Positions 11,794 to 52,496 of a stretch of DNA of 64,000 nt are shown here, one piece after another. Each line of letters opens with the position of its first letter. The stretch's first letter is position 1. The DNA is from Omnitrophica WOR_2 bacterium RIFCSPHIGHO2_02_FULL_50_17 (GTDB lineage: Bacteria > Omnitrophota > Gorgyraeia > Zapsychrales > Zapsychraceae), in contig MHGQ01000032.1 of NCBI GenBank assembly GCA_001805645.1, positions 64,267 through 128,266 on the forward strand, given 5' to 3'. A program made the position numbers and the translations under genes. The notes beneath the pieces were generated by a model that was given only the letters and a program-made list of their open reading frames with translations, made no database searches and had not been told where the DNA came from.

Positions 11794-13764
11794 CTAATTC
11801 TGTAGTACCCGGAGAAATTTCTCCGGCACCTGCGAACTTTGATCCAAAAACAGGAATCTGTTAACAAGCTCCTCTGTCTCTGCCCTATATTTCCCATGAC
11901 TTGTATCGTCTGTCAGAATATCCCTGACAATTTCTCGCAGCTGCTGGGGAGAATAAACGGTTCGCACCAACCGGCTGTCAATATGTTTAAGCGGAGACAT
12001 GTTGATGCGCTCCGGGGTGTTGATACTGACAACAAAACACCCAAACAGCAATGCTTCTATGGAAACCCCCGATTCTCCGGCGATGACAATCTTGACCTCT
12101 GGCAGTAAATTCTCAATGGGGTCATTTTTGATTTGGAAATCCAGCTTGGCGGGATCAATCCGGGCCATTTCCAGAACCTTTTGAATTGACAAAAATGGAT
12201 GTGGCTTAATCCAAATTTCAACATCCTGAATGTTCTTAAAGGCCTCGCAGGCAACTGTAAGGATCGAACTGCTTTCTTCGATACTGATTGAGAAGGCCAA
12301 CAGAATGACATCTCTCTTGCGCGGCCAATCTGTTTTCATATAAAGTTTCAGATGATTATACCTTATCGCTTCAACAACCTCCAATTGGCTCACTGGCCAT
12401 CCGCTCTCAAGCATGTAATTGTAGGGAATCCGCCCGTTACAGATGATTTTATCCGGCCGGGCCGCAGGATAGGGGCCCCCACCCGCGATTTCTTTTTGAT
12501 CATTAAAATAATTCAAGAGAAACCGCGAAATCGTTGCATGCTGATACCCCAGCATCGATGTATCAACTCCTAAACTGTCGCGGGCAAATATTAAGGCCTT
12601 TTCCCATATTTGCATTTCCAAAAAATATAAACATTTTTTCGCCTTAACTTTCTTTAGCAGTTCCTGAAATCCATAAAAATACAAAAGCGCCATGTACCCG
12701 CCCTTGCCGACGAAAGACAAATACCATTCATCTCTAAATAACGGATAGAAATTATAATTGCCGATTTCATACTCCCGACGGACAAGGCCTTCGATCCTCA
12801 AAAATCGAAACACCATGATCCCCATCATCCACAATGCCTTCAGATGAGAAAACAAACCGTTGAACTCTTCTATAAAAAAGATTTTATTGCCGTTTTCGAT
12901 AAATCGTCTGGCGAATTTCAACGATTCATCCAAGGAAATGCTGTTATTCTGCGCATAGATGGCCGCCCATATGACGGACCTTCCCTGCTCGCGCAGAGGA
13001 TCATCCAGGCCGGCAAAAAATTTGTTTCTGAAAATACCTTTCTGTGCCGACAAAACATCAAAATAAGGGAAATACGTCACAAAAAGCAAAGGATTTTCGC
13101 GGTCCAATGAACGATTGGACCGGCCGACAGCCTTTTTGATCTTACATGTCCTGAGAACGATATTGAGAACGCAGGAACACAATATCAAGATATGCTTGAG
13201 ATAAAAAAGACCTTGAAAATTCTTAACAGACAACTTTAAACTCCTCTCATTCTGAGTGGAGGCAAATCGCACCTTTATGAGATGTTTCTTGCAAAAATCT
13301 TTAATGGCCCTGCGGATTCGCGCACATTGGCATCCTAAAACGATCTTTGTTATTTTCCTGCTTGTAACACTGCCTGTGATCGCCTCCAGTTGGACAAGAG
13401 CATTGAAAGCGCCTGAATTTAAGGTGCTCTTCTCAGCGATGGAACTTAGCCACCACATGCTCAATGTTTTATTCAGACGAAAATATTCCTTCAAACTTTT
13501 GCCGCCGACATTGATCCGCTGCGGCAATTCAGCAATAAATCGCAGGTATTTTCCCCGGACAACTTCAGCGCACGAACTAACAAGTTCCGCCGAGGAGATG
13601 ACCTGGACGCTGTGGGCCCTTTTACCGATTTCACGCACCAGAACCTCAACCAATGAATCGCTTGAAGTCAGGGGAAACAAATAGACTACATCTTCTGCCC
13701 CAAACGCTTTAAGCGGAAGTTTTTTAACATTTATGCTGGAATCAAATACACAGAGAACATTCAT
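11794..13764 (-). CDS. Uncharacterised 656-aa protein with GT-B/TagF-like C-terminal signature (KPHP…IAGESGVSIEALLFG); candidate sugar/phospho-sugar transferase
   Basis: C-terminal motifs resemble the CDP-glycerol glycerophosphotransferase/capsule-synthesis (KpsS/TagF) GT-B superfamily; one internal hydrophobic segment; assignment tentative. Confidence 0.35.
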   Translation of the reverse strand: MNVLCVFDSSINVKKLPLKAFGAEDVVYLFPLTSSDSLVEVLVREIGKRAHSVQVISSAELVSSCAEVVRGKYLRFIAELPQRINVGGKSLKEYFRLNKTLSMWWLSSIAEKSTLNSGAFNALVQLEAITGSVTSRKITKIVLGCQCARIRRAIKDFCKKHLIKVRFASTQNERSLKLSVKNFQGLFYLKHILILCSCVLNIVLRTCKIKKAVGRSNRSLDRENPLLFVTYFPYFDVLSAQKGIFRNKFFAGLDDPLREQGRSVIWAAIYAQNNSISLDESLKFARRFIENGNKIFFIEEFNGLFSHLKALWMMGIMVFRFLRIEGLVRREYEIGNYNFYPLFRDEWYLSFVGKGGYMALLYFYGFQELLKKVKAKKCLYFLEMQIWEKALIFARDSLGVDTSMLGYQHATISRFLLNYFNDQKEIAGGGPYPAARPDKIICNGRIPYNYMLESGWPVSQLEVVEAIRYNHLKLYMKTDWPRKRDVILLAFSISIEESSSILTVACEAFKNIQDVEIWIKPHPFLSIQKVLEMARIDPAKLDFQIKNDPIENLLPEVKIVIAGESGVSIEALLFGCFVVSINTPERINMSPLKHIDSRLVRTVYSPQQLREIVRDILTDDTSHGKYRAETEELVNRFLFLDQSSQVPEKFLRVLQN

Positions 13765-13771
13765 AAGAAAT

Positions 13772-50516: not shown

Positions 50517-50525
50517 TTCAAAATA

Positions 50526-52496
50526 TTATTTTGACACGTTTAATGATTGCCGGATTCTTTGCATGGGGGAAACGTCCAGATTACCCCCATATTCCGGGAA
50601 AATATATTTTTCCAAATAAGCCATAAAATCCCGCTCTGGCAAACTTAACCAGTAATTCATCGTGTCCTTTAATTCCAGCCCATTATGCGCAACAATCCTG
50701 GGAAACTTTTCAAAAAAAGAATTACGATAGGCGTTGCTTGCGTCATAATAAAAAGCGCGCTTCCCGGCCACCAGGGCTTCCACCGTCGGGCTCGCAAAGG
50801 CCATGGAAACCACAAGATGAGCATAGGACACGATAGCATTAGATGAAAAACGAGGGTTTAGAACAATCGCCCTCGGGTGTTTTTTCAAATTTTCATAAAC
50901 CTCGGCAATATCCGTACCTTCCAACCCCATATACTCTTCGTAATTCAAATTCTTGTGTTTTAGAAGAATTCTTAAATCTGGGTAGTGCGGATCGTTGAGC
51001 ATATTAACAAAAGCCTGAAGAAAATCCCGATGCGTTTTCTCCCCGTTGATTGCCTGCAAACTGTTTGTCGTTGTAAAAACGGCCAAGATAATCCCTGCAG
51101 GATTACTGCCCCACCGGTCCAAGATAATCTTATCCATCAATGCCGTTTTTTTGATTTCACGGTACCAAATCGGACCGTAAGCCTCAAAAAAGCGGGACCG
51201 ATTATGGTGTTTCTGAGCCAGCTGAATCAATTGCCGCCCCCAATGGATTTCCCCATCGAATTTCATATAATCCCTTAAAGCCTCACGGCCGGAAAGCTTG
51301 CCATTATTTTCATACATCTGGATTTTGCTGTTACTGTGGTCAAAATACCAGCTCTGGCAGCCGATTGTTCCAAGAAGGATATTACGGAAAATATGCCGAT
51401 ACTGAATATCATGGCAGGCGAAATAGGCCATTGGAAAGTAATGACAGATAAAATTCTGCCACATGAAATAATCCATCCATGCATGAACCACCACTTTCAT
51501 CAAATTTATCGGTGTTGACAGAGATTGCAGAAAAAGCGCGCCTAACCTTTTGAAATTCTGAAGAATTAATATCCTGAGAATAAAATCCACAGAAACTTCC
51601 CTAAACGCAGCCTTATAATACTGCCGGGAAAGCGTATATTTCCGATGACTGATCTCGTTTTCGTAATCCTTGTTCAACTGATTTTCAGCAACAAAAAGCG
51701 TATTGCCAGGATGGAATCTTTCTCCATCCAGAAGCCAATCGGCCTCATGAGTGGCTTGCCCGCGCAAGCCCCAATCATTGTTATATAACCGTATCGCCAG
51801 CTGCATCGATTTGGGGGCACTTTTATGGAAGTTTATTTTCCGTATACGCGATAAAATCCAGGGGACTGTCCCGAGGAGCCCCGCTAAAAATAAAAATTTC
51901 TTCCCAATTTTCTCGAGTTGGCCCGAAAAGGACACCCCAAAACTATCATTCACCTTTTCCGGCAACGTTGTCTTGACGCCGGCCAGACGCATATATTGAT
52001 CCATCTGTTGCCATTGGGAGGAAATTGACAATTGGATCGGCCGCCCCAGACTTTGTAAACTTTGGGCGGCATTAACGACCCTGAAATAATCCGCCAGCCA
52101 CAGAACCAATTGTTTTTTAAATGCCATACAAACATCGGGATCACCGTACAAAGATTCCAGTGGCTTTAACGGAATACGCTCATTTTCCAGCAACCAAGAA
52201 TAAACCTTCTCAACGTTCTCTATGGCCTGGTCTTCCGCCGTGTATCTTTGACAAAAAGAAAAAATATGCCATGTGAATCTCCGGATATTATCGGCGCCTG
52301 CCAATCGGCGAAACCAAAAACTCTTTATTCCGGCAGGAGGAATGTTTATGACGACAATCAATGTCCCCGCCGCGTATATATGGCTCCGCAAGCGCAAATA
52401 ATCCACAAAAGAGGCCAGTTCATCCACCAAAACAATCCTCTGGTAACCGGATTCCATATCTTTTGTTGATAGAATTCTAAAAGACTCGTTTTGCAT
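50526..52496 (-). CDS. Uncharacterised 656-aa protein with GT-B-like C-terminus (…SPTVEALVAGKRAFYYD); candidate (nonulosonic-acid) glycosyl/phospho-sugar transferase
   Basis: No canonical motif; C-terminal pattern and size resemble 11794..13764 and the capsule-synthesis/TagF-like GT-B group; tentative. Confidence 0.35.
   Translation of the reverse strand: MQNESFRILSTKDMESGYQRIVLVDELASFVDYLRLRSHIYAAGTLIVVINIPPAGIKSFWFRRLAGADNIRRFTWHIFSFCQRYTAEDQAIENVEKVYSWLLENERIPLKPLESLYGDPDVCMAFKKQLVLWLADYFRVVNAAQSLQSLGRPIQLSISSQWQQMDQYMRLAGVKTTLPEKVNDSFGVSFSGQLEKIGKKFLFLAGLLGTVPWILSRIRKINFHKSAPKSMQLAIRLYNNDWGLRGQATHEADWLLDGERFHPGNTLFVAENQLNKDYENEISHRKYTLSRQYYKAAFREVSVDFILRILILQNFKRLGALFLQSLSTPINLMKVVVHAWMDYFMWQNFICHYFPMAYFACHDIQYRHIFRNILLGTIGCQSWYFDHSNSKIQMYENNGKLSGREALRDYMKFDGEIHWGRQLIQLAQKHHNRSRFFEAYGPIWYREIKKTALMDKIILDRWGSNPAGIILAVFTTTNSLQAINGEKTHRDFLQAFVNMLNDPHYPDLRILLKHKNLNYEEYMGLEGTDIAEVYENLKKHPRAIVLNPRFSSNAIVSYAHLVVSMAFASPTVEALVAGKRAFYYDASNAYRNSFFEKFPRIVAHNGLELKDTMNYWLSLPERDFMAYLEKYIFPEYGGNLDVSPMQRIRQSLNVSK

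Follow-up and report, generated by a model that had tools for sequence, protein, structure and literature searches.

Three large proteins of an Omnitrophota surface-glycan locus as candidate transferases for CMP-activated sugars

The stretch of DNA analysed here (the window) comprises 64,000 nucleotides of contig MHGQ01000032.1 from Omnitrophica WOR_2 bacterium RIFCSPHIGHO2_02_FULL_50_17 (positions 64,267 to 128,266 of the forward strand), and positions below are counted from its first letter. The whole window is a single continuous glycan-biosynthesis locus on the minus strand, transcribed from high to low coordinates. An earlier note on this DNA had described nonulosonic acid synthases and cytidine monophosphate (CMP)-activating enzymes without a recognisable sialyltransferase, and had pointed to three large open reading frames of 656, 604 and 656 amino acids as the best candidates for the missing transferases. 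The synthases and activating enzymes are indeed present: the locus encodes NeuB-type synthases at 27751..28791 and at 44208..45254, a single NeuC, and CTP_transf_3 domains at four places (17974, 20522, 43367 and 48732). The three reading frames are real genes, all on the minus strand, and each is the only member of its family in the window, where no further paralogue was found. They are called T1, T2 and T3 below:

T1, 11794..13764, minus strand: 656-amino-acid protein with a predicted GT-B fold, TIGR04326 family
T2, 28806..30581, minus strand: 591-amino-acid protein with a predicted GT-B fold, TIGR04331 / PF27859; the reading frame may extend to a TTG at 30620 (28806..30620, 604 amino acids)
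T3, 50526..52496, minus strand: 656-amino-acid protein of the PFTS-motif family (TIGR04417 / PF27878)

The second gene most likely starts at the ATG at 30581, giving 591 amino acids, because a 100% identical protein of that length is on record (P0001) and this ATG lies 4 nucleotides past the stop of the upstream GDSL gene. The missing sialyltransferase also held up on inspection. Families GT29, GT38, GT42, GT52 and GT80 had no Pfam or NCBIfam match on T1, T2 or T3, nor on the other minus-strand reading frames of at least 150 amino acids, each of which was scanned against at least one of the two libraries. The 10 kb past the window's low end, which encode a Wzy_C-like protein, a GT4, a PMT_2 and two family-less proteins of 484 and 549 amino acids, have no annotated canonical sialyltransferase.

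By comparison with NCBIfam models, the three proteins fall into three catalogued families of putative glycosyltransferases. T2 matches TIGR04331, “LIC12162 family transferase”, over residues 10-581 of 591 with 432.9-433 bits against a cutoff of 225, as a hidden Markov model search proposed in the earlier note had anticipated, and T3 matches TIGR04417, “PFTS motif protein”, with 111.9 bits against a cutoff of 100. T1 reaches 249.3 bits against TIGR04326, “surface carbohydrate biosynthesis protein”, 0.7 bit short of the cutoff of 250; its match spans residues 54-610 and model positions 12-571 of 602, all 35 of its aligned relatives match the same model (best E 1.2e-219), and several of them are labelled TIGR04326 by the Joint Genome Institute (JGI). 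The protein recorded as identical to T2 carries the newer Pfam family PF27859 (LIC12162), and P0105, identical to T3, carries PF27878 (PFTS_polysacc); the F-(T/A)-S-P-T-x-E motif of the PFTS family lies at residues 567-573 of T3. That the three proteins lack canonical motifs is true of the Pfam copy used, which found no family on any of them at E<=0.1, but not of NCBIfam, which recognises all three.

Relatives were collected from a word-indexed collection of 5.8 billion proteins for T1 (68 sequences) and T2 (36) and by exhaustive search for T3 (439 representatives); a tblastn search of 72,556 plasmids returned no match to any of the three. Looking up the clusters to which T3 relatives belong yielded no informative names. 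Apart from its own 100% match, T2 is at most 73% identical to any protein, and T3 at most 42%. The three are thus ordinary, if fairly divergent, members of their families, with no structural difference from them. Since they fall into three named families, T1 by a score just under the cutoff, “novel” can apply to their function only: the suggestion of novel transferases for CMP-activated sugars is supported by fold, motif and context, but the families themselves were already catalogued. Public annotation of the T2 family already reads “transferase”. None of the three families is known to be listed in CAZy. A Herbaspirillum genome paper has proposed a family member as a possible N-acetylneuraminic acid (Neu5Ac) transferase from context alone (PMC6679464). 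Culturable carriers of LIC12162-family genes include Leptospira interrogans (LIC12162), Herbaspirillum seropedicae AU14040 (Hsc_4298) and the Aliarcobacter sp. of L006. The outcome here is a well-founded prediction of function within known families and not a new type of system.

The GT-B fold comprises two Rossmann-like domains, of which the C-terminal one binds the nucleotide, and AlphaFold (AF2) models built on family alignments predict this architecture for T1 (predicted local distance difference test score, pLDDT, 91.8; predicted template modelling score, pTM, 0.92) and for T2 (pLDDT 90.0, pTM 0.91). In Foldseek searches of the PDB, the top 50 matches of both models were all GT-B enzymes, with target-normalised TM scores of up to 0.64 and 0.56, respectively. 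The matches of T1 (E 6e-10 to 1e-7) include NeuC (5xvs, 5.9e-10), uridine diphosphate-N-acetylglucosamine (UDP-GlcNAc) 2-epimerases, BshA, CalG, Cps3D and TagF (3l7i, 3l7j and 3l7k, 5e-8), and those of T2 (E 5e-7 to 1e-4) include OGT (5e-7), SPINDLY, the same three TagF structures (1.5e-5), UDP-GlcNAc 2-epimerases, PglA and WaaG. The structural check suggested in the earlier note therefore puts T1 and T2 with the GT-B glycosyltransferases, TagF being one of them, rather than with peptidases or kinases. Sequence searches of the three families against PDB entries, by single sequence and by profile, gave nothing significant, with a weak KpsC match for T1 only.

The families are also linked to one another. 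Compared by hhalign, the T3 family aligns to the T1 family with a probability of 95.9% (E 5.7e-9) over 359 columns, which is the whole GT-B core, so T3 can be inferred from sequence to share the fold, and the T2 family aligns to the T1 family with 90.6% (E 1.3e-6) over 236 columns. The direct profile-profile comparison of the T2 and T3 families was not significant. As a control, the three families were compared with an unrelated GT-B family, PseG, and gave probabilities of 15-48% and E values of 2e-4 to 2e-3. The relationship between the T1 and T3 families is therefore specific, and that between the T1 and T2 families is real if modest. The N-terminal 220-300 residues are family-specific across the three families; in T1 this region is about 220 residues long and has a hydrophobic helix at residues 185-205, as judged from hydrophobicity.

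The position at which a CMP-activated donor would be held can be compared with known enzymes. A (K/R)xHP motif is common to the sialyltransferases of GT29, GT38, GT42, GT52 and GT80 and to the retaining 3-deoxy-D-manno-oct-2-ulosonic acid (Kdo) transferases of GT99 and GT107, its basic residue touching the cytosine and its His the CMP phosphate; in KrkA, the subject of a structural paper of 2026, two adjacent Ser residues add to the binding of the phosphate and the ribose is bound by a Glu (Ser271/Ser272/Val273/Glu276), and the same CMP role of (K/R)xHP is described for KrkA, KpsC, WbbB and sialyltransferases (PMC12887879). The corresponding elements in the window are the following:

T1 K520-P-H522-P523, 12196..12207, minus strand: (K/R)xHP motif; K/R, H and P are each found in 35 of 35 family members
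T1 S565-G-V-S-I-E570, 12055..12072, minus strand: helix start of the S-S-V-x-x-E type; S/T565 in 35 of 35 family members, E570 in 32 of 35
T2 R443-L-Y445, 29247..29255, minus strand: degenerate (K/R)xHP, aligned to K-P-H of T1 in the hhalign register
T3 K513-H-K515, 50952..50960, minus strand: aligned to K-P-H of T1 in the hhalign register; the next residue is N

The signature of CMP transferases, a (K/R)xHP following the second strand of the C-terminal domain together with the Ser/Thr and Glu residues, can be recognised in the sequence of T1 only. The spacing of its S565 and E570 equals that of the KrkA site, and the T1 profile aligns KpHP...SxxxEAL in register with KVHP...TSQYGFEAL of KpsC, in an overall match (E 0.23) that is not significant alone. 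In the T2 family the basic residue is an Arg in 33 of 34 sequences, the third position is Tyr in 20 and His in 5, and the Pro is found in 15 of 34; T2 itself reads R443-L-Y-P. The family shows a T-T-x-L-E element, with Gln at the Glu position in T2 itself. The T3 family has an invariant K-x-K in place of K-x-H-P (K513 and K515 each in 41 of 41), along with (T/A)-S-P-T-x-E, so that an S/T...E element is kept in both families.

Two of the three proteins had been credited with KPHP and EALxxG patterns. T1 has both (KPHP at 520-523, EALLFG at 570-575), T3 has EALVAG at 573-578 but K-H-K-N at the KPHP position, and T2 has neither. The literal KKHP at residues 538-541 of T3 is probably what the earlier reader saw. 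It was considered as a canonical HP motif and rejected, the hhalign register and the comparison with KpsC placing the motif position at K513-K515, about 25 residues earlier.

The genes around T1, T2 and T3 fall into modules, whose main members are these:

CTP_transf_3 + 2-hydroxyacid dehydrogenase fusion, 48732..50516, minus strand: Pfam and NCBIfam matches; directly downstream of T3
GT2-like protein of 466 amino acids, 45284..46684, minus strand: PF00535, 8.7e-24; between the T3 and NeuB#2 genes
NeuB-type synthase #2, 44208..45254, minus strand: found in the library scan
PseF-like cytidylyltransferase of NeuB#2, 43367..44227: CTP_transf_3
NeuB-type nonulosonic acid synthase #1, 27751..28791, minus strand: TIGR03569, 383.8 bits; starts 14 bp downstream of T2
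NeuC, 25631..26866, minus strand: TIGR03568, 394.9 bits; in the T2-linked module
PseF-like CMP-nonulosonate synthetase (CTP_transf_3), 20522..21280, minus strand: closes the T2-linked module
CTP_transf_3 cytidylyltransferase of the T1-linked module, 17974..18726, minus strand: found in the library scan

Besides NeuC, the T2-linked module holds WbuX/WbuZ amidotransferase genes, a deacetylase and a formyltransferase. The association of the T2 family with nonulosonic acid genes extends well beyond this locus. Among 80 metagenome loci fetched (L012-L091), the 34 with at least 15 kb of sequence were counted; their T2-family proteins are diverse, grouping into 23 clusters when cut at 50% identity and sharing a median of 31% identity between pairs. 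NeuB lies within 10 kb in 33 of the 34 (97%) and CTP_transf_3 in 29, none of the 34 lacks both, and NeuB is on the strand of the T2-family gene in 42 of 46 cases. Unbiased clustering of the neighbours recovers a recurrent order in which biosynthesis and tailoring genes are followed by the T2-family gene and then by a Wzx-like flippase, the immediate downstream gene in 13 of the 34 loci, and the T2-family gene is often the last of its operon. This position before Wzx is the place expected for a transferase that loads a finished sugar onto a lipid-linked unit.

The NeuB homologues beside LIC12162-family genes are mostly short (about 284 amino acids), and the representative that was scanned consists of the NeuB domain only. 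Other frequent neighbours in the 34 loci are GDP-mannose 4,6-dehydratase-like genes (18), DegT aminotransferases (16), B12-radical-SAM enzymes (16), Wzx-like flippases (16) and a PseG homologue (15) whose profile matches PDB entry 3hbm with E 2.8e-33.

For the T3 family, the gene that follows encodes CTP_transf_3 in three places: the window, the syntenic locus of an Omnitrophota metagenome-assembled genome (L005) and L007. In L073 (13930-16449) a single reading frame of 840 amino acids fuses a PFTS domain (residues 68-590) to a CTP_transf_3 domain (from residue 597). The CTP_transf_3/D-2-hydroxyacid dehydrogenase fusion is kept beside the T3 homologue of L005 (12261-14018) and is 63% identical there. 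A related-locus search with a four-sequence T3 alignment found one genome only, an Omnitrophota metagenome-assembled genome.

T1 travels with a different set of partners. In its close relatives of L009-L011, an orthologue of the 17974..18726 cytidylyltransferase adjoins the T1 homologue (E 8e-86 to 4e-101), a fourth close context, L092, carries CTP_transf_3 in the same module and within 10 kb, and four more distant members of the family have CTP_transf_3 immediately upstream. Every close T1 relative is accompanied by a cassette, found at 1225..18726 of the window and in L009, L010, L011 and L092, that combines a dedicated cytidylyltransferase and a radical-SAM/SPASM protein with a HisC-like aminotransferase, a pair of B12-radical-SAM enzymes, a HAD phosphatase, a short epimerase and, in most cases, a 2-hydroxyacid dehydrogenase. 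Neither NeuB nor a KdsA-type synthase was found within 10 kb of the four close T1 relatives, an absence that is no proof because the flanks were limited to 10 kb and an LIC12162 gene lies at the edge of L010; conserved partners without NeuB nevertheless suggest that the donor of T1 is probably another CMP-activated compound. The neuB/neuA co-occurrence analysis called for in the earlier note is thus borne out, through NeuB and CTP_transf_3 for the T2 family and through adjoining CTP_transf_3 genes, with one fusion in the T3 family, for the other two.

Taken together, we consider it likely that T1, T2 and T3 are each a transferase for the CMP-activated sugar of their own module, and they are the best candidates for attaching sialic-acid-like sugars to the surface glycan. 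What was observed is family membership, the modelled folds of T1 and T2, conserved motifs, homology between the families and gene context, and from these we infer donors, catalysis and acceptor as follows. Each protein would be a cytoplasmic GT-B glycosyltransferase that takes a CMP-activated acidic sugar from the neighbouring CTP_transf_3 enzyme and transfers it to the lipid-linked glycan of the locus. The C-terminal Rossmann domain would hold the nucleotide: in the loop past its second strand, the basic residue and the His (Lys in T3, Tyr in T2) may touch the cytosine and the phosphate, and the S/T pair and the Glu at the start of the next helix may touch the phosphate and the ribose. The N-terminal half, with its family-specific extension of 220-300 residues, could bind the acceptor or the membrane. 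The donor of T2 is most likely the nonulosonic acid made by the adjacent module of NeuB#1, NeuC and amidotransferase genes, and that of T3 is most likely what the adjoining CTP_transf_3/2-hydroxyacid dehydrogenase fusion activates, which may be the product of NeuB#2. For T1, the donor is probably a CMP-activated compound of the radical-SAM-rich module around 17974 and not derived from NeuB, and the cytidylyltransferase at 17974..18726 is its probable source.

A broader reading is possible but more doubtful, namely that the three families make up a single clan of GT-B transferases for CMP-ulosonic acids, one that is common among uncultivated bacteria and extends to Leptospira, Aliarcobacter and Herbaspirillum, and in which the phosphate-binding His of (K/R)xHP has given way to Lys in the PFTS family and to Tyr in the LIC12162 family. 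Under this tentative scheme T1 would transfer an undescribed CMP-activated acid built, without a NeuB-type synthase, by the cassette of cytidylyltransferase, radical-SAM-SPASM protein, HisC-like aminotransferase and two B12-radical-SAM enzymes.

Several observations weigh against assigning all three proteins as CMP-sugar transferases. The best structural matches of T1 are UDP-GlcNAc 2-epimerases and NeuC, which have the GT-B fold but are not transferases. The canonical HP motif occurs in T1 only, T2 having R-x-Y and T3 K-x-K at the corresponding position, and the relatives of T2 match no characterised family, only their own. The GT-B fold of T3 is predicted from the hhalign comparison with the T1 family, and the link between the T2 and T1 families is only about two orders of magnitude better than the similarity of T2 to a generic GT-B family. 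On the side of context, independent T3 contexts are few: of the five, two are unbiased and the other three came to light through T2 loci, which leaves a small and partly biased sample. No CTP_transf_3 lies within 10 kb of P0089, a T1 relative. In L005, a fusion of GT2 and CTP_transf_3 (14116-15555) occupies the position of the window's 466-amino-acid GT2-like protein, which indicates that other transferases can couple to CMP activation and that this GT2 enzyme may likewise be tied to a CMP-activated sugar. Finally, the literature searched held no experimental study, biochemical or genetic, of any member of the three families.

Part of this evidence could be read as a sign of biosynthetic GT-B enzymes, that is, of nucleotide-sugar hydrolases or of 2-epimerases with hydrolysing activity, akin to PseG, LegG or NeuC, that free a hexose for condensation with phosphoenolpyruvate (PEP) by NeuB. 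Such enzymes would account equally for the fold and for the co-occurrence with NeuB, the top Foldseek matches of T1 (and some of T2) are of this kind, and NeuC homologues are rare in T2-family loci, with 1 in 34. Yet a bona fide NeuC is already encoded in the T2 module of the window, 15 of the 34 T2-family loci have a PseG homologue as a gene of its own, and the T2-family genes come after the tailoring genes and beside Wzx rather than between aminotransferase and NeuB; T2 is therefore probably not the missing nucleotide-sugar hydrolase. The CMP-type (K/R)xHP of T1 speaks against this reading too, as does the fusion of a T3-family protein to a cytidylyltransferase, which joins consecutive late steps. 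None of the three proteins has a PseG or Epimerase_2 match, which sets them outside those families, and the three families come no closer to PseG than generic GT-B similarity. On balance we regard hydrolases or epimerases as quite improbable. Transfer of the nonulosonic acids by the GT2-type proteins (45284..46684, 58798..59679, 8165..10030 and 1225..2163) or by proteins outside the window, with T1, T2 and T3 left to ordinary nucleoside diphosphate (NDP)-sugar transfer or to accessory or scaffold roles, is improbable as well. The GT2-CTP_transf_3 fusion of L005 is the best argument for it, and the two family-less proteins just past the low end of the window could also be enlisted. GT2 enzymes, on the other hand, characteristically use NDP-sugars and a DxD-bound metal, the coupling of the T2 family to NeuB and the adjacency of T3 and T1 to CTP_transf_3 are hard to fit to generic NDP-sugar transferases, and T1 carries the CMP-type motif.

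The earlier note had also allowed for glycerol-phosphate-type donors, and the three proteins might accordingly be TagF-like phosphotransferases or polymerases that use cytidine diphosphate (CDP)-linked alditol phosphates or sugar phosphates to build teichoic-acid-like phosphodiester polymers. The Foldseek matches include TagF and TarL for T2 and TagF and the TagF-like Cps3D for T1, the HP motif is present in TagF-type enzymes too, and the window has a CDP-hexose branch (62014..62817 and 61043..62017). TagF and TagB (PF04464) resemble T1-T3 in their GT-B architecture and not in sequence; the proposed use of a cytidine-nucleotide donor and a membrane-associated role in surface-polymer assembly would also be common to both. 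In sequence, PF04464 matches neither T1-T3 (E<=0.1) nor 35 T1 relatives (E<=0.05), so the three proteins lie outside that family, and their nearest sequence families are KpsC/KpsS and BFO_1060 instead. Pfam and NCBIfam scans of the window found no TagD-, TarI- or TarJ-type genes for CDP-glycerol or CDP-ribitol, and the cytidylyltransferases that travel with the three families are CMP-ulosonate synthetases of the CTP_transf_3 type and not of the TagD type. A glycerol-phosphate-type donor thus lacks matching biosynthesis genes and is unsupported, and we hold a TagF-like role to be very improbable. Transfer of CMP-activated sugars remains the reading that we prefer for T1, T2 and T3.

Comparison with characterised systems places the three proteins near, but outside, several known groups. 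The Tannerella forsythia proteins Tanf_01245 and TFUB4_00887, of the BFO_1060 family (NF046086), are GT-B/TagB-like, are encoded beside genes for CMP-pseudaminic (Pse) or CMP-legionaminic acid (Leg) synthesis and have a C-terminal HP motif; they were proven to be Pse/Leg transferases by knock-out and complementation (PMC5420450). Residues 492-618 of T1 align to positions 198-323 of the BFO_1060 model (E 1.8e-4), but with 20.8 bits against a cutoff of 200 T1 falls outside this family; T2 and T3 have no match, nor do the T2 relatives. T1-type relatives match the model in 8 of 35 cases (best 2.7e-9) and T3 relatives in 3 of 41 (best 6.9e-6). The Tannerella proteins are about 445 amino acids long as against 591-656 here, and only the nucleotide-binding half aligns. 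The Kdo transferases KpsC/KpsS (GT107, PF05159), WbbB (GT99) and KrkA (GT140) have a GT-B-like fold like that predicted for T1-T3, and in T1 also the pattern of (K/R)xHP, Ser pair and Glu recurs; their donor is a CMP-linked ulosonic acid supplied by a CTP_transf_3 enzyme, as is proposed here. T1, T2 and T3 themselves, however, have no PF05159 match and so are not members of the KpsC/KpsS family, no equivalent of the Asp nucleophile and Glu base of the Kdo transferases was identified, and T2 and T3 are without the His-Pro pair. The searches with PF04464 and PF05159 that the earlier note had proposed were accordingly negative for all three proteins, with a weak Capsule_synth (PF05159) match in 4 of 35 T1 relatives (best 5.6e-5). 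The GT52 and GT80 sialyltransferases and the GT38 polysialyltransferase likewise use a CMP-nonulosonate donor and a CMP-binding HP motif, but, beyond the negative library scans, no GT29, GT38, GT42, GT52 or GT80 enzyme was among the top 50 Foldseek PDB matches of T1 or T2.

Nonulosonic acids (sialic, legionaminic and pseudaminic acids and their relatives) decorate bacterial surfaces, with a link to virulence in some reports, and to our knowledge the enzymes that attach them are known in only a handful of organisms. Knowledge of such transferases has been called “scarce” (Tomek et al. 2017). Should the missing transferases be those of the LIC12162, PFTS and TIGR04326 families, a key step could be assigned in hundreds of environmental glycan loci and in pathogens such as Leptospira, and the enzymes might be used for the chemo-enzymatic synthesis of rare sialic-acid-like glycans. 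The combination of the fold, a CMP-type motif, the 97% coupling to NeuB and the fusion to a cytidylyltransferase turns a database label into a concrete prediction of function that can be tested.

In the order of transcription, the window begins with a CDP-hexose branch (62817-60118), a GT2 and a MarR regulator, followed by an FkbH-ACP-MaoC-SDR-MBOAT-DltD-like cassette. T3 and its adjoining CTP_transf_3/2-hydroxyacid dehydrogenase fusion come next, with oxidoreductases, the GT2-like protein, NeuB#2 and the second cytidylyltransferase, and then a set of sulfation and tailoring genes. The T2 block (T2, NeuB#1, NeuC, amidotransferase genes and the third cytidylyltransferase) is followed by an ABC exporter, by the fourth cytidylyltransferase with the radical-SAM cassette and T1, and lastly by a polytopic membrane protein without a family match, more GT2s and an IS110 element. 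The remaining features of these blocks are as follows:

NTP_transferase of the CDP-hexose branch, 62014..62817: found in the library scan
CDP-glucose 4,6-dehydratase-like gene, 61043..62017: found in the library scan
Other GT2-type proteins, 58798..59679, 8165..10030 and 1225..2163

Directly downstream of T1 lies the polytopic protein of 584 amino acids (10036..11790), with at least 7 hydrophobic segments and no Pfam or NCBIfam match, which could be a polymerase, a ligase or a GT-C-like enzyme of the pathway. The IS110-family transposase (6911..7939) sits inside the T1-linked module, between an epimerase-GT2 fusion and a B12-radical-SAM gene, and a contig from a different sample (L095) ends within it.

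Between the T2 and T3 blocks, an adenylyl-sulfate kinase and a malate/L-sulfolactate dehydrogenase-like gene (39253..41183) hint at sulfation or a sulfonated substituent, and a 361-amino-acid protein close to them (37175..38260) has no family match. Within the same interval, the reading frame 39845..40099 (85 amino acids) is a fragment of a NeuB-type synthase that covers positions 210-265 of the model and shares 84% identity with a section of a short NeuB-like gene of 240 amino acids in L005 (15539-16258); a third synthase gene has probably left this remnant. The GC content of the adjoining 40-50 kb stretch is 0.48-0.51, compared with 0.40-0.47 elsewhere, which suggests an inserted block.

Directly upstream of T3, the cassette at 52504..58193 encodes an FkbH protein (56409..58193), an acyl carrier protein (ACP) of 100 amino acids with a DSL motif (56155..56457), a MaoC-type hotdog protein (55737..56150), a short-chain dehydrogenase/reductase (SDR), a DltB-like membrane-bound O-acyltransferase (MBOAT) and a weakly DltD-like protein. 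The entire cassette is syntenic in L005, and it looks like a carrier-protein-dependent O-acylation system for the glycan, possibly a glyceryl-based one.

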